Shown: positions 6,663-50,359 of the stretch, piece after piece | How the letters are laid out: the number at the start of each line of letters is the position of its first letter | Position numbering within the stretch: the stretch's first letter is position 1 | Source: Escherichia coli | Lineage (GTDB): Bacteria; Pseudomonadota; Gammaproteobacteria; Enterobacterales; Enterobacteriaceae | Assembly (NCBI RefSeq): GCF_009931435.1 | Contig: NZ_CP043414.1 | DNA: 64,000 nt | Strand: one strand, 5' to 3' | Position numbers and translations under genes: made by a program | The notes under the pieces: generated by a model | The model's input: only the letters and a program-made list of their open reading frames with translations | The model's database searches: none | What the model was told of the DNA's origin: nothing

Positions 6663-8087
6663 TTACTGCATTAACAGATAGATGGTGCTGTCGCCGCGCT
6701 GAATATTCAGTGCCAGCACAGACGGTTTGCTGTCGAGAACTTTACGCAGTTCAGCGATGTTTTTCACTGCCTGCTGGTTCGCACCAATAATCACATCACC
6801 TTTCTTCAGGCCGATCTGCGCAGCTGGAGTGCCCGTTTTCACGTTGTTCACCACCACGCCCTGATCTTTGCCTTTGTTGCTCATCTCAGCGCCTTCAATG
6901 CCGTTGAAGATGGTGCTGGAATCAACCTGATTCTGGCTGCTCTGCTGCAGTTCCAGGTTCACGTTAACCTGCTTCCCGTCGCGCAGTAAGCCCAGGGTCA
7001 GTTTGCTGCCTACCGGCATAGTGCCCACCTGAGCACGCAGTGCGGCAAAGCTGCTGATTGGCTTACCGTTCAGTGAGGTGATCACATCACCCGCTTTAAT
7101 GCCCGCTTTCGCGGCGGAAGAATTCGGCAGAACCTGGCTTACGAAAGCACCGCGCTGGGCGTCAACTTTCATCGCTTTCGCCAGATCGGAGTTCAGCTCA
7201 GTCCCCATAATACCCAGCTCACCGCGTTTCACCTGGCCGTATTCCACCATCTGCGAGGTCAGGTTTTTCACCATGTTACTCGGGATAGCAAAACCGATAC
7301 CGATGTTGCCGCCGTCCGGTGCGAGGATCGCGGTGTTGATACCGATCAGTTCGCCGTTCAGGTTAACCAGCGCACCACCGGAGTTACCACGGTTGATCGC
7401 AGCATCGGTCTGGATGAAGTTTTCATAGTTTTCGGCATTCAGACCGCTACGCCCCAGCGCAGAGACAATCCCGGAAGTTACCGTCTCACCCAGACCAAAC
7501 GGGTTACCAATTGCTACGGTGTAATCACCCACGCGCAGTGCATCAGAATCCGCCATCTTAATTGCGGTCAGATTTTTCGGGTTCTGGATCTGGATCAGCG
7601 CGATATCAGAGCGCGGATCTTTGCCAACCATCTTCGCGTCGAACTTACGACCATCGCTCAGCTGGACTTTAATCACCGTCGCGTTATCAACAACGTGGTT
7701 GTTGGTGACGACATAGCCTTTATCGGCATCAATGATGACGCCGGAACCCAGCGCCATGAATTTCTGTTGCTGGCCGCCGCCATTACCGCCCTGGCCCCCC
7801 TGGCAGAACGGAGAGCTCTGGAACGGAGAACCTTCCTGGCAGAACGGAGAATCATCACCGAAGAACTGCTGGAAATTACGCGGCATACGCGGCGTATTAA
7901 CGGTTGTGCTACCTTCTACGTTAATGCTGACCACTGAAGGCATCACCTTTTCGAGCATCGGTGCAAGGCTTGGCATCTGCTGGGCTGTCGTTGCTGAAGA
8001 AGTCTCAGCCGCCGTTGCAGAGAGCGGAGATAACGCCAAACCTAAACTCAGAGCCAGTGCACTCAGTGCTAATGTGGTTTTTTTCAT
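6663..8087 (-). CDS. degP: periplasmic serine endoprotease DegP/HtrA
   Basis: 474-aa ORF with signal peptide, trypsin-like catalytic region (GNSGGAL) and two PDZ domains. Confidence 0.95.
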   Translation of the reverse strand: MKKTTLALSALALSLGLALSPLSATAAETSSATTAQQMPSLAPMLEKVMPSVVSINVEGSTTVNTPRMPRNFQQFFGDDSPFCQEGSPFQSSPFCQGGQGGNGGGQQQKFMALGSGVIIDADKGYVVTNNHVVDNATVIKVQLSDGRKFDAKMVGKDPRSDIALIQIQNPKNLTAIKMADSDALRVGDYTVAIGNPFGLGETVTSGIVSALGRSGLNAENYENFIQTDAAINRGNSGGALVNLNGELIGINTAILAPDGGNIGIGFAIPSNMVKNLTSQMVEYGQVKRGELGIMGTELNSDLAKAMKVDAQRGAFVSQVLPNSSAAKAGIKAGDVITSLNGKPISSFAALRAQVGTMPVGSKLTLGLLRDGKQVNVNLELQQSSQNQVDSSTIFNGIEGAEMSNKGKDQGVVVNNVKTGTPAAQIGLKKGDVIIGANQQAVKNIAELRKVLDSKPSVLALNIQRGDSTIYLLMQ

Positions 8088-8132
8088 GTATTTCAGTCTC
8101 GATTAACAGATAACGCAAAATTGCTGTGTTCT

Positions 8133-26836: not shown

Positions 26837-28086
<1,250 letters not shown>

Positions 28087-28263
28087 TAGAGTAAGTAACT
28101 GGTTAATTTACATTCTGGTCGCGTGCGCAAATACGCTTTTCCTCACACAGTTGTCAAGTGTTACGTTTAGATAATTGCTATCCGGAAAAGCTTCTGCTAT
28201 TTATAGCGGCCTCATTTTTCCCCCGAACATGGGGATCGATAGTGCGTGTTAAGGAGAAGCAAC

Positions 28264-28719
28264 ATGCAAGAAGGGCAAAACCGTAAAACATCGTCCCTGA
28301 GTATTCTCGCCATCGCTGGGGTGGAGCCATATCAGGAGAAGCCGGGCGAAGAGTATATGAACGAAGCCCAGCTGGCGCACTTCCGTCGTATTCTGGAAGC
28401 ATGGCGTAATCAACTCAGGGATGAAGTCGATCGCACCGTTACACATATGCAGGATGAAGCAGCCAACTTCCCGGATCCGGTAGACCGTGCAGCCCAGGAA
28501 GAAGAGTTCAGCCTCGAACTGCGTAACCGCGATCGCGAGCGTAAGCTGATCAAAAAGATCGAGAAAACGCTGAAAAAAGTGGAAGACGAAGATTTCGGCT
28601 ACTGCGAGTCCTGCGGTGTTGAAATTGGTATTCGTCGTCTGGAAGCGCGCCCGACAGCCGATCTGTGCATTGACTGCAAAACGCTGGCTGAAATTCGCGA
28701 AAAACAAATGGCTGGCTAA
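28264..28719 (+). CDS. dksA: RNA polymerase-binding transcription factor DksA
   Basis: ORF 28246..28719; start placed at MQEGQNRK (151 aa); C4 zinc finger [25 protein letters not shown]. Confidence 0.95.
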
Positions 28720-28746
28720 TTACAGCCGTTCCATCACGTTTACCAC

Positions 28747-28776
28747 AGGCGGGAAATGCTCCCGCCTTATTTTTTG
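28747..28776 (+). terminator. rho-independent terminator after dksA
   Basis: stem AGGCGGGA/TCCCGCCT with 5-nt loop followed by TTATTTTTT; overlaps the 5' end of the gluQ ORF. Confidence 0.75.
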
Positions 28777-29682
28777 TTCAACGAGATGACAGACACACAC
28801 TATATTGGCCGCTTTGCCCCCTCTCCTTCCGGCGAGCTTCATTTTGGCTCTCTGATTGCCGCGCTTGGAAGCTTTCTACAGGCTCGCGCCCGGCAAGGTC
28901 GCTGGCTTGTTCGCATTGAAGATATCGATCCGCCTCGTGAAGTTCCCGGTGCCGCAGAGACCATCCTGCGCCAGCTGGAACATTACGGTTTACACTGGGA
29001 CGGCGATGTTCTCTGGCAATCGCAACGTCACAACGCCTATCGCGAAGCACTCGCATGGTTACATGAGCAAGGGTTAAGTTATTACTGCACCTGCACGCGC
29101 GCACGTATTCAAAGCATTGGCGGTATTTACGACGGTCATTGCCGGGAGTTGCATCATGGGCCAGAAAACGCTGCTGTACGTATTCGCCAGCAGCATCCGG
29201 TCACCCAGTTTACTGACCAGCTGCGCGGCATTATTCATGCCGACCAAAAACTGGCGCGGGAAGATTTTATTATTCATCGTCGTGATGGTCTATTTGCCTA
29301 TAACCTGGCGGTGGTCGTTGACGATCACTACCAGGGCGTGACAGAAATTGTTCGTGGCGCGGATTTGATCGAACCCACGGTGCGCCAAATCTCGCTGTAC
29401 CAGCTTTTTGGCTGGCAGGTGCCAGATTACATTCATTTGCCACTGGCACTTAATCCACAAGGCGCTAAACTTTCCAAGCAGAATCATGCGCCTGCGTTGC
29501 CAAAAGGCGATCCTCGGCCGGTGTTAATCGCGGCACTTCAATTTCTGGGCCAGCAGGCAGAAACACACTGGCAGGATTTCAGCGTCGCGCAAATTCTCCA
29601 GTCAGCCGTCAAAAACTGGCGGCTCACCGCAGTGCCTGAGTCGGCAATTGTAAATTCAACATTCTCAAATGCGTCATGCTGA
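28756..29682 (+). CDS. gluQ: glutamyl-Q tRNA(Asp) synthetase
   Basis: 308-aa ORF from the ATG at 28756, which lies inside the dksA terminator; alternative in-frame ATG at 28786 (MTDTHY); class I aaRS HIGH-like motif ([10 protein letters not shown]). Confidence 0.85.
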
Positions 29683-29741
29683 GCTATGATTAGCCGCTAT
29701 TTTTTTGTCCTGAATGATGTTTGACACTACCGAGGTGTACT

Positions 29742-31139
29742 ATTTTTACCCGAGTCGCTAATTTTTGCCGCAAGGTGCTAAGCCGCGAGGAAAGCGAGGC
29801 TGAACAGGCAGTCGCCCGTCCACAGGTGACGGTGATCCCGCGTGAGCAGCATGCTATTTCCCGCAAAGATATCAGTGAAAATGCCCTGAAGGTAATGTAC
29901 AGGCTCAATAAAGCGGGATACGAAGCCTGGCTGGTTGGCGGCGGCGTGCGCGACCTGTTACTTGGCAAAAAGCCGAAAGATTTTGACGTGACTACTAACG
30001 CCACGCCAGAGCAAGTGCGCAAACTGTTCCGTAACTGCCGCCTGGTGGGTCGCCGTTTCCGTCTGGCTCATGTGATGTTTGGCCCGGAGATTATCGAAGT
30101 TGCGACCTTCCGGGGACATCACGAAGGTAACGTCAGCGACCGTACGACCTCCCAACGCGGGCAAAACGGCATGTTGCTGCGCGACAACATTTTCGGTTCC
30201 ATCGAAGAAGACGCCCAGCGCCGCGATTTCACTATTAATAGTCTGTATTACAGCGTGGCAGATTTTACCGTCCGTGATTACGTTGGCGGCATGAAGGATC
30301 TGAAGGACGGCGTTATCCGTCTGATTGGTAACCCGGAAACGCGCTACCGTGAAGATCCGGTACGTATGCTGCGCGCGGTTCGTTTTGCCGCCAAATTGGG
30401 CATGCGCATCAGCCCGGAAACCGCAGAACCGATCCCACGCCTGGCTACCCTGCTGAACGATATTCCTCCTGCACGCCTGTTTGAAGAATCGCTTAAACTG
30501 CTACAAGCGGGCTACGGTTACGAAACCTATAAACTGTTGTGTGAATACCATCTGTTCCAGCCGCTGTTCCCGACCATTACCCGCTACTTTACGGAAAATG
30601 GTGACAGTCCAATGGAGCGGATCATTGAGCAGGTGCTGAAGAATACTGACACGCGTATTCATAACGATATGCGCGTCAACCCGGCGTTCCTGTTTGCCGC
30701 CATGTTCTGGTATCCCCTGCTGGAAACAGCACAGAAAATCGCGCAAGAGAGCGGCCTGACTTATCACGACGCTTTCGCGCTGGCAATGAACGATGTGTTA
30801 GACGAAGCCTGCCGTTCACTGGCGATCCCGAAACGGCTAACCACTTTAACGCGTGATATCTGGCAGTTACAGTTGCGCATGTCCCGCCGTCAGGGTAAAC
30901 GCGCATGGAAATTACTCGAACATCCGAAGTTCCGTGCCGCTTATGACCTGCTGGCACTGCGTGCTGAAGTAGAACGCAACGCCGAGCTACAACGTCTGGC
31001 GAAATGGTGGGGTGAGTTCCAGGTTTCCGCGCCGCCGGACCAAAAAGGGATGCTTAACGAACTGGATGAAGAACCGTCACCGCGTCGTCGTACTCGTCGC
31101 CCGCGCAGACGTGCGCCGCGCCGTGAGGGCACCGCATGA
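29742..31139 (+). CDS. pcnB: poly(A) polymerase I
   Basis: ORF track opens at the TTG at 29721; no ATG near the 5' end; start placed at the ATT codon at 29742 (IFTRVANF), as reported for E. coli pcnB; nucleotidyltransferase GGGVRD motif. Confidence 0.85.
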
Positions 31140-31612: not shown

Positions 31613-32115
31613 ACCACATTTCTGGAAAAGCGTATTGGGTAATGCAATGTTGTATAATATTATTTTATAGTTTCAATGAATTAATTCTCTCTCCCCCATC
31701 ATAAAAATCACAAAAAAACAGCATTAAACATATAATTACGGCAAATATATTTTCATTACCTATATTAACTTTTCTCTTTATAAGAGGTTTTTAATGATAA
31801 TGAACCAGTTTATTCTGGGTACTATGCCTCACTCCCGGTATTAGCACTGGATAGCGCTTAACTGGATTCTGTCAGGCTGGGACGGGGCAACAAGAGCATA
31901 CAACGACCAGTCCTTAACGCGTGATTATTAATTTCTACAGCGTATCATCATATTATTTAAATCTGCCCAACCTCACCAAATACATTCATAAAATGCATAA
32001 TGATAATAAATCATAAAATACATTCACCGAAGATATTTCTCTTTAAAGAGCGTGACATTTATAATAAGTATTGGTGAGAAAAATCACCCCCATTAATTTT
32101 TATAAGGATATTCCC

Positions 32116-32685
32116 ATGTTAAAAAAAAGTGCTATTGCTGCGGCATTAGTGATGTTCACCACTTCTGCTTTCGCGCTGGATGGCGGTCAATTAGATTTCG
32201 CGGGTTTGGTGAGTGACAACACTTGCGTCTTGCACGTCAACGGTGGCGCCCAGGACGGTCAGATTACCCTGCAAACCGCCACAACCACTGAAGTTAATCA
32301 GGCCGGTGTTGTCCAACTTGCCAGCCCTGGCGCAAAACCGGAAGCCTTCTCTATTACGATCGATTGCTCGGACGATCCACAGGGCGCCTCTGCCAATCTG
32401 AGCATGGGTTCCGTGTTCTTCAGCAACAGTCAGGGCACTCTGAACAACGATCTCTCCATTAGCCAGGCGGCTACCGGGGTCGCGATTGCCATTCACTACC
32501 TTACCGATGCCACTACCTACGAACAGATGAGAGTGAACGACAGCACTGATGTTAAAAACCTGCTGTTTACCAACGGCAAAGCGGTTTACAACTTTAAAGC
32601 GTCATATGTAAAACAGGCAGCAACAGTTAACGCAACGGCAGGTTATGTCAAAACCAACGCCGCTTATACAGTGACTTACCAGTAA
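32116..32685 (+). CDS. yadN: fimbrial major subunit, YadN family
   Basis: ORF 32071..32685; start placed at MLKKSAIAAALVMFTTSAFA (signal peptide); C-terminal ...YTVTYQ donor-strand motif; first gene of the operon next to folK; appears to be a divergent allele. Confidence 0.8.
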   Translation: MLKKSAIAAALVMFTTSAFALDGGQLDFAGLVSDNTCVLHVNGGAQDGQITLQTATTTEVNQAGVVQLASPGAKPEAFSITIDCSDDPQGASANLSMGSVFFSNSQGTLNNDLSISQAATGVAIAIHYLTDATTYEQMRVNDSTDVKNLLFTNGKAVYNFKASYVKQAATVNATAGYVKTNAAYTVTYQ

Positions 32686-32742
32686 ATATCTGCATCACCC
32701 GACAGCCCACGGGCTGTTGGGTCACTCAATAAGGATAGTGTT

Positions 32743-33486
32743 ATGACCAGGATGTGTCAGTTTATTGTTTCCACTGCTTTCGTCGCATCGACAGCCGTTT
32801 TCAGCCTCACCGCGCAAGCAGATATTGTGCTTTCCGGTACGCGCATTATTTATAATGCCGACCAGAAAGACGTCACATTGCGCATGGAAAACAAAGGTGC
32901 CCGCCCACTATTAGTTCAGACCTGGATTGATACCGGCAGCGAAAATGCCGACCCCAGCACACTGAAAGTGCCTTTTACCGTGACGCCGCCGGTTTCCCGC
33001 GTTGATGGTAAAAAAGGCCAAACGGTTAAAATTGCCTGGAGCGCCAGCCAGACCCTTCCAGCCGATCGCGAAAGCGTTTATTGGTTCAATGCGCTGGAAG
33101 TTCCCCCCAAGATGAACGATGCCGATGCCAAGGGAAAAAACATTCTGCAATTGGCTTTCCGTACCCGTATCAAGCTGTTCTATCGCCCAACCGGCCTGGC
33201 GGGTAACCCGGCTGATGCACCAAAACAGTTAACCTGGCGTCTCCAGTCTTCAGCCGGAAAAGTGGTGTTGCAGGCAACAAACCCAACGCCTTATCACGTC
33301 TCATTCAGCAGTATTACCCTTGCCTCAGGCGGTAATAAATATACCGTGGAAAGCAGTATGGTCGAGCCCAAAAGCAGTGCGGAAATGGTGGTAAAAGGCG
33401 CTCCCCGTTCTGTGTCTGGCGCAACAGTTGAGTACTCAGCCATTAATGATTTTGGCGGTGGCATTGACGGCAAAGTCAAACTTTGA
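32743..33486 (+). CDS. ecpD: PapD-like periplasmic fimbrial chaperone
   Basis: 247-aa ORF with signal peptide and chaperone N-domain sequence (DIVLSGTRIIY...LLVQTWID); symbol by synteny (yadV/ecpD). Confidence 0.8.
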   Translation: MTRMCQFIVSTAFVASTAVFSLTAQADIVLSGTRIIYNADQKDVTLRMENKGARPLLVQTWIDTGSENADPSTLKVPFTVTPPVSRVDGKKGQTVKIAWSASQTLPADRESVYWFNALEVPPKMNDADAKGKNILQLAFRTRIKLFYRPTGLAGNPADAPKQLTWRLQSSAGKVVLQATNPTPYHVSFSSITLASGGNKYTVESSMVEPKSSAEMVVKGAPRSVSGATVEYSAINDFGGGIDGKVKL

Positions 33487-33518
33487 TGCCCACAGACGAG
33501 ATCGGCTGAGATCGTACA

Positions 33519-36125
33519 ATGAAGATCCCCCACGATGGCAAAAGAATTCAACGATCGCCGCTCGCTTGCCTGATTGCGTGTAGCCTGCTGCCCTGCACAC
33601 AAAATGTGTGGGGGGCAAACGAGACCGTTGAGTTTGATAACACGTTCCTGATGGGCGCAGGTGCCAGAGATATTGATGTCAATCGTTACAGCAAAGGTAA
33701 CGCAACATTGCCGGGGCGCTATGACGTCAGCGTGTTTATTAATAACCAGGCCAGCGCCAATCTGAAAATCGAGTTTATTGAATTAGACCCTGAACACGCT
33801 GCTCAGCCCTGTATCTCCACCAACACATTATTACAACTGCATATTCGCCAGCCAGAAAAGTTAGCGGATAACGCAATTTTGCAAAAACGCGAAAATGCTG
33901 CGCAGGATTGCCTGAACGTAGAGGTTGCTATTCCGCAATCGAGCGTCGCTTACAATAGCAACGATCAGCGGCTTGATATCAGCATGCCGCAAATCTGGCT
34001 GCAGAGAACCTATGCCAACTATGTCGATCCGTCGCTGTGGGATGAAGGCATCAATGCCGCAATGCTCTCTTACACCCTTAACGGCTGGCGCAGTGAATCC
34101 CCCAATCAAACCACAGAAACCAGCTACGCCGGACTGATGGGCGGTATCAATTTATGGGGATGGCATTTTCGCTCACATGGTAACTATTCGTGGGACAAAG
34201 AAGACGGCGGCAGTTTTGAATTTCAGGATAAATATCTGCAACGCGATATCGCCGCGCTCCGCTCTCAGCTGGTAATGGGTGAAACCAATACCACAGGAGA
34301 AACCTTCGACTCGGTGCCTATTCGCGGGCTGCGACTCTATAGCGAAAGCCGCATGTTGCCCCCTACGCTGGCGTCGTATGCGCCTGTTATCCGTGGCGTG
34401 GCAAACTCTAACGCGAAAGTCACGATCACCCAAAACGGTTATAAAATTTATGAAACGACCGTGCCGCCTGGTCCATTCGCGATTGACGATCTCACGCCGG
34501 CAGGGTTCGGCGCCGATCTCGAGGTGACCATCACCGAATCGGACGGTTCAAAACGTACGTTTAGTCAGGCTTATTCATCGGTGATCCAGATGATGCGTCC
34601 CGGCGTGGGCAAATGGGATATCAGCGCCGGTGAGGTCAATAAAGCGGAACTCCAGGATAAACCTAACCTGCTGCAAGGTACCTACTATTACGGGTTGAGT
34701 AACACCTTCACCGGCTACACCGGCCTGCAAATGACCGATAACGGTTACTGGGCCGGTTTATTAGGGGTGGGCATGAATACATCGCTGGGCGCTTTCTCCT
34801 TCGATGTTACTCAGTCTCATGCCGAAATTCCTGACGATAAAACCTATAGTGGACAGAGTTACCGTGTTTCATGGAACAAATATTTCGCCCCGACCGAAAC
34901 CTCACTCAACATTGCCGCCTATCGCTACTCCACTGAAAACTATCTGGGGCTGAACGACGCGTTAACGCTGATTAATTCTGCCAACCATCCTGATGAAGAA
35001 GGCTATTCGGGGATTGTCAGTTATGCACGCATGAAAAATCAGTTCAGCGTTAGCATTAATCAAACGTTAAAAAGTGATGAACGTGACTATGGCTCTTTCT
35101 ATGTGAATGGCACATGGACAGATTACTGGGTAACCAACGAATCACAGAGCAGTTTTGCCTTTGGCTACAGCAATGCCTTTAACTGGGCGAGCTACAGCGT
35201 CAGCCTGCAACGGACATACGATGAAGACAATAAGAAGGATGACTCGATTTATCTGAGTGTGACCATTCCGCTTGATAAACTGCTTGGCCGCGATAGCCAT
35301 CAGGGCGGGTTCAAAACCCTGAACACCAGCGTTAACAGCGACATGAAAGGGAGCTCACAATTTAACGCCAATGCCTCGGGCTACAGCCAGGATAATCGCT
35401 GGAGTTACAGCGTGAATACCGCCTATAACGTGCAGAAAAACAGCGACAGCCTGAAAAGTATCAGCGGTTATACCAGCTATGAGTCGCCGTGGGGAACATT
35501 TTCAGGCTCAGCCTCCACCAGCAGCGATCGCTCACGTCAGTATGGGCTCAGCACCGATGGCGGTTTTGTACTCCACCGCCACGGTCTGACCTTCAGTAAC
35601 GACAGTTTTACCGACTCTGACACGTTGGCGCTGATCAACGCCCCGGGTGCAAAAGGCGCGCGCATTAACTTTGGTAACAGCACCATCGACCGTTTTGGCT
35701 ACGGCGTGACCAGTTCACTGTCACCGTACCGGGAAAATACCGTCGCGCTCGATGTTAACGATCTGGATAACGACGTGGAGCTCAAAAACACCAGTAGCGT
35801 CGCCATTCCGCGCCAGGGTTCCGTCATTTTCAGCCACTTTGACACCGATACCGGGCGCTCCGCCATTCTCAATTTACTGCGTAGCAACAATCAGCCCGTG
35901 CCGTTTGCTTCCGATATTACCGACGAAAAAGGGACCTCTATCGGGACCGTCGGTCAGGGCAGTCAGGCATTTGTACGCGGCATTGCCGACAGCGGTGAAC
36001 TGACGGTCACCTGGTATGAGAAAAATAGTCGCCAGCAGTGCCGTATTCATTATCAGATACCGTCATCACCCACCATGACCGGTAAAACCATCGTACTCAA
36101 CGGCGTGCCATGCACCCAGCAATAA
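33519..36125 (+). CDS. htrE: fimbrial outer-membrane usher
   Basis: 868-aa ORF, size and sequence typical of FimD/PapC ushers; symbol by synteny. Confidence 0.85.
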   Translation: MKIPHDGKRIQRSPLACLIACSLLPCTQNVWGANETVEFDNTFLMGAGARDIDVNRYSKGNATLPGRYDVSVFINNQASANLKIEFIELDPEHAAQPCISTNTLLQLHIRQPEKLADNAILQKRENAAQDCLNVEVAIPQSSVAYNSNDQRLDISMPQIWLQRTYANYVDPSLWDEGINAAMLSYTLNGWRSESPNQTTETSYAGLMGGINLWGWHFRSHGNYSWDKEDGGSFEFQDKYLQRDIAALRSQLVMGETNTTGETFDSVPIRGLRLYSESRMLPPTLASYAPVIRGVANSNAKVTITQNGYKIYETTVPPGPFAIDDLTPAGFGADLEVTITESDGSKRTFSQAYSSVIQMMRPGVGKWDISAGEVNKAELQDKPNLLQGTYYYGLSNTFTGYTGLQMTDNGYWAGLLGVGMNTSLGAFSFDVTQSHAEIPDDKTYSGQSYRVSWNKYFAPTETSLNIAAYRYSTENYLGLNDALTLINSANHPDEEGYSGIVSYARMKNQFSVSINQTLKSDERDYGSFYVNGTWTDYWVTNESQSSFAFGYSNAFNWASYSVSLQRTYDEDNKKDDSIYLSVTIPLDKLLGRDSHQGGFKTLNTSVNSDMKGSSQFNANASGYSQDNRWSYSVNTAYNVQKNSDSLKSISGYTSYESPWGTFSGSASTSSDRSRQYGLSTDGGFVLHRHGLTFSNDSFTDSDTLALINAPGAKGARINFGNSTIDRFGYGVTSSLSPYRENTVALDVNDLDNDVELKNTSSVAIPRQGSVIFSHFDTDTGRSAILNLLRSNNQPVPFASDITDEKGTSIGTVGQGSQAFVRGIADSGELTVTWYEKNSRQQCRIHYQIPSSPTMTGKTIVLNGVPCTQQ

Positions 36126-36141
36126 TGTTCCAGGAGAGGAA

Positions 36142-36714
36142 ATGAGAGCTTTTTTACTACCGCCCCTGCTGCTGCTGACGTCGCTTTGTCTGCGCCCCGC
36201 ACTGGCAACCGATCTTTCGGTGAACTTTACCGCGACCATCAAAGAGACGACCTGTGCCATGACGCTCAACGCATTGAATGGGGCCAATATCAGCGGTGAT
36301 ACCGCAACAAATAACTATTATCTGGATCTGCCTGATATGGGTGTTTCAGACATTGTGAATAAATCGTCACTGTCGGAGGCTAATTTTAAAATCCTTGCCA
36401 GCAATTGTAATAACTATATTTCCGGCCTGTCGATGACCCTCAATGGCGCAGTCAGCAGCTATACAGATTCGTTAATCGGTAATGACCAGACCGTTTCCGG
36501 ACATACCAACTATGTTGGTCTTGGTATTAAACGTATGAACGCTGATGAAAATCTCCGCTTTAAACTCAACGGTAGCCAGCGAGTTACCTGGACGAATGAT
36601 GAAATAAGTAATGGATTAGATCTTACAGCCATGCTTCGTCAGACCACCACCGGGAATACGATCACCACAGGCCAATTCCAGGCCAAAGTGACTTTCGTCT
36701 TTACCTACCAATAG
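36142..36714 (+). CDS. yadM: fimbrial minor subunit, YadM-like
   Basis: 190-aa ORF with signal peptide and C-terminal VTFVFTYQ. Confidence 0.75.
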   Translation: MRAFLLPPLLLLTSLCLRPALATDLSVNFTATIKETTCAMTLNALNGANISGDTATNNYYLDLPDMGVSDIVNKSSLSEANFKILASNCNNYISGLSMTLNGAVSSYTDSLIGNDQTVSGHTNYVGLGIKRMNADENLRFKLNGSQRVTWTNDEISNGLDLTAMLRQTTTGNTITTGQFQAKVTFVFTYQ

Positions 36715-36719
36715 CAGGT

Positions 36720-37322
36720 TTGTTTATGAATTATCACAATATAACCTTTGTCTTGCTGCTGTGCTTTGGATATATCGCCATCGGCCACGCCGCCAGTAGC
36801 TCTATGGACGTTACGGTACGTGCTAAGGTCACTGCCAGTACCTGCACGGCGGAATTACGCGATGCGCAGGATCAGCAAGCCACCACCATCGCTATTGGCG
36901 ATGTCTATCTCAACGAGCTTTCCGCTAAATCGAAATACCAGAACTTCAGCCTGGTGTTTTCAAACTGCGAAGGGTTAGCAAAGGATCAGGCAAAAGTTGT
37001 GCTTTCTGCACAGACGGGCTGCGATGGCGCTTCCAGTACCGGTGGCGGATACCGTAATGCACTGACGACGGCGGACGATGATGCGGCAACCGGTGTTGCG
37101 GTTGAAGTGTGGACGACCAATCAGCCAGAAGGTCAGGGCAGCATTCAGCTTAATTGTAAAACCAAACCGACCAGTATTGTTGATTTAGCTGCGGCAACAG
37201 GCTCGAATATTGTCCAATGGCCGCTCAGTGCCCGGATTGTAGTAGCTTCCGATAACACCATCGCTGATGTACGCGCCGGGCAATTCTCCACTAATGCAGT
37301 CTTTTCTGTGACCTATGAGTAG
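36720..37322 (+). CDS. yadL: fimbrial subunit, YadL-like
   Basis: 200-aa ORF with signal peptide, Cys pair and C-terminal VFSVTYE. Confidence 0.75.
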   Translation: MFMNYHNITFVLLLCFGYIAIGHAASSSMDVTVRAKVTASTCTAELRDAQDQQATTIAIGDVYLNELSAKSKYQNFSLVFSNCEGLAKDQAKVVLSAQTGCDGASSTGGGYRNALTTADDDAATGVAVEVWTTNQPEGQGSIQLNCKTKPTSIVDLAAATGSNIVQWPLSARIVVASDNTIADVRAGQFSTNAVFSVTYE

Positions 37323-37895
37323 ATGATTATGAAAACAGTTATCTACATGATTGCGTTTTGGTTTTCTTACAACGTCATTGCAGCCAGTACCAATATTAAT
37401 ATGACTGCCAATATCATCAGCACCAGTTGCCGGGTCACGCTCGACAATAATGGAAATATTGATTTAGGCACAGTGGATTATAGCTATCTGAATAATAATA
37501 CCTCTGTCGATCGCGTCTATTCTGGCGGGCACCCCTTTTATATTACCGTCAGCGACTGCGCGCAGGTAGCGGGGAAAAATCCGGCCCACCTGACCGTCAG
37601 CTTTACGCCTTTGGCAGGCACCCTTGCGCCAACCAACCTCCAGGTATTCGCCAACCAGCAGGTCAACGGTGCAAAAAATGTCGGCGTGGTTATTTTATCG
37701 ACCGAGGACGCACAGCATATTTTCAATGTGCTCGACACGCGTGGTCAACCGCAAAGTATTTACCCCGTGACGCCCGAAACGATCGCTAACGCGACATACC
37801 ACTTTTACGCTCGGATGCAAAAAATTGACCCTACACAAGCGGTAACCAGCGGCGTGGTAAAAGCGAGCGTATTTGTTGGGGTTTATTATGAATAA
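37323..37895 (+). CDS. yadK: fimbrial subunit, YadK-like
   Basis: 190-aa ORF with signal peptide and C-terminal FVGVYYE; start abuts the previous stop. Confidence 0.75.
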   Translation: MIMKTVIYMIAFWFSYNVIAASTNINMTANIISTSCRVTLDNNGNIDLGTVDYSYLNNNTSVDRVYSGGHPFYITVSDCAQVAGKNPAHLTVSFTPLAGTLAPTNLQVFANQQVNGAKNVGVVILSTEDAQHIFNVLDTRGQPQSIYPVTPETIANATYHFYARMQKIDPTQAVTSGVVKASVFVGVYYE

Positions 37896-37921
37896 TCTAT
37901 ATCACTCTCAAGGATGAAGAG

Positions 37922-50215: not shown

Positions 50216-50359
50216 TTGCTGACAAAGTGCGCTTTGTTCATGCCGGATGCGGCGAAAACGCCTTATCCGGCCTACTAAAACTCGCAAATTCAATAAATTG
50301 CAGAGTTCACGTAGGCCTGATAAGCGTAGCGCATCAGGCAGTTTTGCGTTTGTCAGCAG
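50216..50359. repeat. REP pair (BIME) in the gcd-cueO intergenic region
   Basis: GCCGGATGCGGCGAAAACGCCTTATCCGGCCTAC and inverted GTAGGCCTGATAAGCGTAGCGCATCAGGC; flanked by inverted 10-mers TGCTGACAAA / TTTGTCAGCA. Confidence 0.8.

Follow-up and report, generated by a model that had tools for sequence, protein, structure and literature searches.

Caballero et al. (2012, BMC Microbiol 12:226; PMC3542578) studied the interval between dksA and gluQ-rs in detail in Shigella flexneri. In their experiments, RT-PCR gave a 1.44-kb product from a dksA-gluQ co-transcript, and a lacZ fusion (pVCDT) that extended from dksA +58 to the gluQ start and lacked the dksA promoters had baseline activity. Removal of the intergenic region produced about 10-fold more lacZ activity than the native arrangement, while point mutations that broke the stem of a hairpin in this region produced more than 2-fold more. 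The difference between the two effects indicates a contribution from something besides the stem, for example the T-tract, the leader, or an effect of the fusion junction. Mfold gave the hairpin a free energy of -14.7 kcal/mol; its loop contains the first AUG of gluQ-rs, and 27 nt beyond this AUG comes the second, before which no obvious Shine-Dalgarno sequence was seen. When GluQ-RS was expressed with the native intergenic region, its N-terminal sequence was TDTQYIGRFAP, the residues that follow the second AUG, and the protein therefore has 298 amino acids. In stationary phase, the RNA spanning the intergenic region rose 20-fold, whereas the dksA and gluQ amplicons changed only 1.3-fold; the expression data of that study come from plasmid lacZ fusions and semi-quantitative RT-PCR in S. 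flexneri.

Two other operons with internal partial terminators were described in the same paper, namely rpsU-dnaG-rpoD, with the T1 terminator upstream of dnaG, and recA-recX, in which read-through is about 10%. In both of these E. coli operons, an intrinsic terminator follows a gene of high expression and precedes one of low expression that lacks a separate promoter, and read-through fixes the ratio of the two. The dnaG gene further resembles gluQ in having an unusual, weak ribosome-binding site. The genes at these two loci are unrelated to dksA and gluQ, and the comparison follows the statements of PMC3542578. The preQ1 riboswitches of queuosine genes likewise place a terminator hairpin directly upstream of a gene of the queuosine pathway. 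Unlike these riboswitches, the gluQ hairpin follows a coding gene and not a promoter, and has no aptamer, Rfam match, or conserved alternative pairing.

We analyzed a stretch of 64,000 nucleotides of Escherichia coli DNA (the window), which covers the usual rpsB-to-aceE region of an Escherichia chromosome. The genes sfsA, dksA, gluQ, and pcnB follow one another in this order on the plus strand (Table 1), so that the locus, its genes, and their order are those of the S. flexneri and E. coli dksA-gluQ-rs operon in another Escherichia lineage. The stretch around the hairpin is 99.9% identical to that of E. coli strain RMDEC465, and the dksA-gluQ-pcnB segment (28200-29750) has a 99.9% match in this one complete E. 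coli genome only, a strain from human stool in Thailand. The identity of the same segment is 90-99% to 5424 of the 5426 complete E. coli genomes, being 95-99% for 1718 genomes and 90-95% for 3705. From the latter number, the window may represent either a divergent Escherichia lineage or a chromosome in which the dksA-gluQ-pcnB segment is unusually diverged.

Elsewhere in the window, two Rfam matches scored above the gathering threshold: the HtrA 5' UTR thermometer upstream of degP (8082-8127, minus strand, 77 bits) and the ES036 (CssrF) small RNA near cueO/yacC (50277-50318, plus strand, 41.3 bits). A chaperone-usher fimbrial operon of seven genes occupies about 32100-39200 (plus strand) between folK and panB, and rpnC lies between panC and panD. 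Judged by the annotation of RMDEC465, the placement of the fimbrial operon and of rpnC is ordinary for this chromosomal region.

Table 1. Positions of the features at the dksA-gluQ locus, numbered from the first nucleotide of the window
Feature	Position	Strand	Basis or remark
sfsA	27382-28086	+	ORF near the hairpin
sfsA-dksA intergenic region	28087-28263	+	Must hold the dksA promoters, which also drive gluQ; inferred from PMC3542578
dksA CDS, 151 aa	28264-28719	+	ORF; annotated as dksA in the 99.9%-identical RMDEC465
dksA stop codon	28717-28719	+	
Terminator stem-loop, AGGCGGGA-AATGC-TCCCGCCT	28747-28767	+	Sequence, terminator scan, fold
ATG1	28756-28758	+	Inside the 5-nt hairpin loop; start of the 308-aa ORF, which is open to the stop at 29682
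Terminator T-tract, TATTTTTTGT	28768-28777	+	Directly 3' of the stem
Short leader, TTCAACGAG	28778-28785	+	Without a functional Shine-Dalgarno sequence; GAG directly abuts the ATG
ATG2	28786-28788	+	18 nt past the foot of the stem; true gluQ start
gluQ (gluQRS/yadB) CDS from ATG2, 298 aa	28786-29682	+	PGAP, PDB alignment, published N-terminus

The sequence-only reading of this DNA had placed a dksA terminator hairpin between the two genes, with the first in-frame ATG of gluQ inside it and the second beyond it, and both the anatomy and the coordinates were confirmed in the sequence and in the fold. The terminator scan returned a hairpin of 8 bp, 6 of them G-C, with a 5-nt loop, which begins 27 nt past the dksA stop codon on the same strand. 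The stem is followed by TATTTTTTG, with 7 T in 9 nt. The hairpin alone has a free energy of -14.5 kcal/mol. Its 86-nt context folds to -21.3 kcal/mol with the hairpin present in both the minimum free energy (MFE) and the centroid structures (ViennaRNA), and this fold has a z score of -3.3, none of 200 shuffled sequences being as stable. By description, it matches the S. flexneri hairpin, which also has an 8-bp stem and the first ATG in its loop. The GC-rich stem with a short loop, the U-tract 3' of the stem, and the position downstream of a stop codon are all as in an intrinsic terminator. Together with the published lacZ effects (PMC3542578), the stem and T-tract bear out the earlier identification of the element as the intrinsic terminator of dksA.

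The 2.1-kb scan found four terminator-like sites where 2.5 were expected, a count that is not significant by itself; the hairpin at 28747-28767 is individually supported because it is conserved in 11 further Enterobacterales lineages. A terminator-like site on the minus strand (28727-28710) has five pairs, overlaps the dksA stop codon, and has no convergent gene nearby, and we regarded it as a chance match. Since the minus strand carries no T-run for the main hairpin, the hairpin is not bidirectional. In the gap between gluQ and pcnB, a weak hairpin with a T-run was seen at about 29685-29712.

The MFE fold also contains an extended helix, in which CAUCACGUU (28733-28741) pairs with AACGAGAUG (28780-28788), encloses the terminator, and covers the gluQ start codon, so that ATG2 would be sequestered. 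We rejected this helix. The leader of the window differs from that of K-12 by one substitution, AACGAG in place of AAAGAG, and the AAAGAG of K-12 and E. albertii breaks the pairing by a single C-to-A change without compensation. No equivalent was found in other genera. The pairing, which occurs in this strain only, is probably due to chance.

The reading that we favor, and hold with high confidence, is that the hairpin and its T-tract form the Rho-independent terminator of dksA, which acts as a partial stop within a dksA-gluQ operon, and that gluQ is translated from ATG2. Under this reading, most transcripts from the dksA promoters would end at the hairpin and T-tract (28747-28777), and the minority that read through would be the only source of gluQ mRNA. 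In this read-through mRNA, the T-tract is also the 5' part of the leader for gluQ translation initiation, and initiation at ATG2 would use a U-rich leader that lacks a Shine-Dalgarno sequence. The output of GluQ would thus be lowered twice relative to the abundant DksA, at transcription and then at translation. The transcription step, comprising the terminator, the co-transcription, and the absence of a promoter of gluQ, was shown in S. flexneri along with the N-terminus of the protein; that N-terminal sequence matches K-12, and the hairpin is matched by its description (PMC3542578). We infer that the values measured in Shigella apply to the strain of the window and that the function of the weak ribosome-binding site is to hold GluQ at a low level. 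A search of the literature for genome-wide 3'-end or read-through data on the dksA-gluQ site found none, and the single mention of dksA in PMC9023263 is an entry in the reference list.

We then compared the interval across gammaproteobacteria. We searched with a degenerate DNA pattern made for the conserved DksA C-terminus and obtained 120 loci; 98 of these, plus the K-12 locus and the window, have gluQ directly downstream of dksA. The window, K-12, and E. albertii were pooled as one Escherichia lineage, giving 12 Enterobacterales lineages with Leclercia, two of Citrobacter, three of Enterobacter, Superficieibacter, Kluyvera, Mangrovibacter, a soil MAG, and Pantoea stewartii. The hairpin was present in all 12 lineages, follows the pattern GGCGGGA(G)/(C)TCCCGCC across the genera, and is identical in sequence in E. 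coli K-12. Its core, GGCGGG...CCCGCC, was intact in 11 lineages, the right arm of Pantoea stewartii being CCGCC. The loop varies freely, with AATGC in Escherichia only and TTTT, TGA, CTT, TTT, CCT, TCAC, TTTAT, TCTT, or CCCT in the others. The dksA stop codon and the hairpin are 16-73 nt apart across the lineages, and the foot of the hairpin is 12-23 nt (median, 20 nt) from the gluQ start. Within E. coli, 5423 of the 5426 complete genomes match the 84-nt dksA-gluQ interval at 95% identity or more, and by these alignments it belongs to the invariant core of the species.

In the wider set, a stable hairpin with a perfect stem was found in the spacer of 64 of 99 dksA-gluQ loci (the window and K-12 counted), and the spacer of 18 of the 99 is under 35 nt and has no room for a hairpin. 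In the farther lineages, the sequence of the stem is fully replaced and the hairpin structure is retained: the stem is GGGAGC/GCTCCC in Vibrio, GGGGCGC/GCGCCCC in Pseudomonas and Stutzerimonas, and GGGCGAGA/TCTCGCCC in Shewanella. A structure conserved with free sequence is what would be expected of a generic intrinsic terminator. Enterobacter cloacae, Superficieibacter, Mangrovibacter, and Pantoea stewartii have a poor T-tract, with 3-4 T in 9 nt, and retain the GC-rich hairpin. In these genera, the hairpin may not be a classical intrinsic terminator, and some other role, such as the stability of an RNA 3' end or the binding of a factor, may account for its retention.

The weakness of the ribosome-binding site was also evident in the comparison. 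The duplex predicted between the anti-Shine-Dalgarno sequence and the 20 nt before ATG2 has a free energy of -1.8 kcal/mol, as opposed to -9.2 kcal/mol for dksA, which has a strong Shine-Dalgarno sequence, AAGGAG, upstream of its start. The controls were the starts of dksA, sfsA, thpR, and folK and ATG1; those of map, glnD, dapD, mtnN, and hemL were left out because the RMDEC465 coordinates upstream of about 15 kb missed the start codons, probably owing to indels. With the relatives included, the corresponding duplex was between -2.7 and +1.0 kcal/mol in 16 of 17 rows, representing 14 of 15 Enterobacterales lineage groups (13 of the 14 other than that of the window), with Pantoea persica (-6.0 kcal/mol) as the exception. 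In this respect too, the window is the same as S. flexneri, in which the second ATG of gluQ-rs lies 27 nt on, without a Shine-Dalgarno sequence, and begins a protein of 298 amino acids. A gluQ start with no Shine-Dalgarno sequence, spaced roughly 20 nt from the hairpin, is conserved in the majority of the Enterobacterales lineages examined, which is a small addition to the published work.

It is possible that the hairpin does more than end transcription. The element could set both the read-through and a ribosome loading that is independent of a Shine-Dalgarno sequence, with its U-rich tail as a landing site for S1, or it could be the target of a factor that raises read-through in stationary phase. 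The hairpin would then be more than a passive leak, because, in the Enterobacteriaceae lineages, its core and the distance of about 20 nt to the start without a Shine-Dalgarno sequence are kept while the T-tract decays in some genera and the distance to dksA varies. A factor of this kind would fit the 20-fold rise of the intergenic RNA, for which a terminator with a purely constitutive leak gives no explanation. We consider such a dual role speculative and improbable.

A more specific proposal is that the hairpin is the platform of a regulated attenuator, either riboswitch-like or controlled by an antiterminator protein or small RNA, so that read-through is switched on in stationary phase or under stress. 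This possibility was raised by the authors of the S. flexneri study themselves (PMC3542578). It gains from the disparity between the 20-fold rise of the intergenic RNA and the 1.3-fold change of the dksA and gluQ amplicons, although the RT-PCR behind these numbers was semi-quantitative. It also gains from the hairpin core, which does not vary among 11 lineages, including lineages with a decayed T-tract. Against it, a conserved ligand-binding or antiterminator structure upstream of the hairpin was not found. The segment between the dksA stop codon and the hairpin differs in length among the lineages and shows no obvious similarity between genera, and it contains no antiterminator sequence able to pair with either arm of the stem. 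The extended helix of the MFE fold, as described above, is lost in K-12, and the stem is completely replaced outside the family, as for a generic terminator. No Rfam family was matched in the dksA-gluQ interval at an E value of 1 or below, and the same search over 28000-29000 for a riboswitch or other known RNA family gave only a chance snoRNA match inside dksA. On this balance, a regulated attenuator is unlikely, and we return to a partial terminator that leaks as the better account of the hairpin.

It was also proposed, in the sequence-only reading, that gluQ must depend either on read-through from dksA or on an internal promoter. The first part of this statement is upheld by the co-transcription and the baseline activity of the promoterless fusion in S. 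flexneri, and the second found no site in our scans. If gluQ had its own promoter inside or just after dksA, the hairpin would merely end the dksA transcript. A sigma-24 site is predicted for E. coli gluQ-rs in RegulonDB, without experimental support, and few growth conditions were tested (PMC3542578). However, the fusion from dksA +58 through the gluQ start gave only baseline activity, which indicates that gluQ has no promoter of its own, and the RT-PCR product shows that the two genes are transcribed together. Strict and relaxed scans found no sigma-70-like promoter from the dksA start to the gluQ start, and no sigma-E-like site (GGAACTT, a 15-17 nt spacer, and TCAAA) was found in 28100-28800. 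The 18 nt from the hairpin to ATG2 are too few to accommodate a promoter downstream of the hairpin. Consensus scans are weak evidence alone, and the decisive result is the published promoterless fusion (PMC3542578). The absence of an independent promoter site in the scans and the conservation of the arrangement in relatives are both as expected of a leaky terminator, and we consider a separate gluQ promoter very unlikely.

The promoters of dksA were taken from PMC3542578, which cites Kang and Craig (1990). A strict consensus scan of the sfsA-dksA intergenic region (28087-28263) returned no site. At the other end of gluQ, a sigma-70-like site (TTCTCA, a 17-nt spacer, and TATGAT) was seen at 29662-29690 on the plus strand, in the 3' end of gluQ and upstream of pcnB, and may be the pcnB promoter. 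The pcnB CDS begins in the RMDEC465 annotation at ATT, a non-canonical start (window 29742-29744), while the mechanical ORF list has an in-frame TTG at 29721 instead. An AUU start is a known feature of E. coli pcnB.

The product of gluQ was identified as the tRNA(Asp) glutamyl-queuosine synthetase (GluQRS/YadB) by its similarity to the characterized E. coli enzyme. Residues 11-308 of the longer ORF correspond to the 298 residues (1-298) of the PDB chains 1NZJ and 4A91 (E = 2.4e-201). The next matches are the catalytic domains of GluRS, and the motif LHFGS (HXGS signature) is present. We take the 298-residue form in these structures to be catalytically active. Compared with the published S. flexneri and E. 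coli system, the locus in the window has only point differences, and the one in the GluQ protein is Gln5 to His.

The true start codon of gluQ had been called ambiguous, and the terminator had been said to overlap the gluQ start; neither description holds. The published N-terminus (PMC3542578), the conservation of ATG2, the crystallized 298-residue form, and the PGAP annotation of the near-identical RMDEC465, in which gluQRS begins at window position 28786, all show that translation starts at ATG2 and that ATG1 is not the main start. An ATG at the position of ATG2, or within 3 nt of it, was found in all the lineages compared. An in-frame ATG at the position of ATG1 was found only in the four Escherichia sequences; the equivalent loop position has no start codon in 9 of 9 other hairpin-keeping lineages outside Escherichia, and in E. 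fergusonii the hairpin is present with a loop that lacks a methionine codon (PMC3542578). The distances from the foot of the hairpin to the start do not differ by multiples of 3, and the interval is therefore not coding. An extended isoform would be expected to conserve its start codon and extension peptide and to have indels that keep the frame, which the orthologues do not show. A 5-nt loop would contain an ATG in frame with gluQ by chance with a probability of roughly 1.6%, which makes its presence a modest coincidence, and by these comparisons ATG1 is an accident, specific to Escherichia, of a loop whose sequence varies freely. With ATG2 as the start, the terminator lies wholly upstream of the real CDS and overlaps only the over-extended 308-residue annotation.

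The remaining proposal, that ATG1 is a genuine start, sole or alternative, of a 308-residue GluQ with a 10-residue extension, the hairpin acting as a translational occluder, is largely refuted by this evidence and most improbable: ATG1 has an open frame, is retained in E. coli and E. albertii, is the annotated start in K-12 MG1655, and is preceded by the Shine-Dalgarno-like AGGCGGGAA (duplex, -6.3 kcal/mol), and a minor isoform would be compatible with an N-terminal sequence obtained from the predominant band after T7 overexpression, but AGGCGGGAA is the left arm of the stem, so that these bases and ATG1 itself are locked in the hairpin, and the expressed protein begins after ATG2 (PMC3542578).

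The feature is thus ordinary and already known, its mechanism and start codon having been published in 2012 (PMC3542578), and the published picture is unchanged by our analysis. The importance of the result is mainly one of annotation hygiene. The gluQ gene of K-12 MG1655 (b0144; NC_000913.3 159186-160112) is still annotated from the loop ATG, with 927 nt and 308 amino acids, and the experiment, the structures, the comparison of lineages, and PGAP show that it is over-extended by comparison with the 298-residue protein, which is a second small addition to the published paper. The case illustrates that a real gene can be shorter than its longest ORF. For the cell, the locus is a way to obtain a little of a tRNA-modifying enzyme from a transcript that encodes an abundant regulator, through a leaky terminator and then a weak ribosome-binding site. 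If the hairpin did have a dual role or were the target of a factor, it would link the modification of tRNA by GluQ to the stringent or stationary-phase response.
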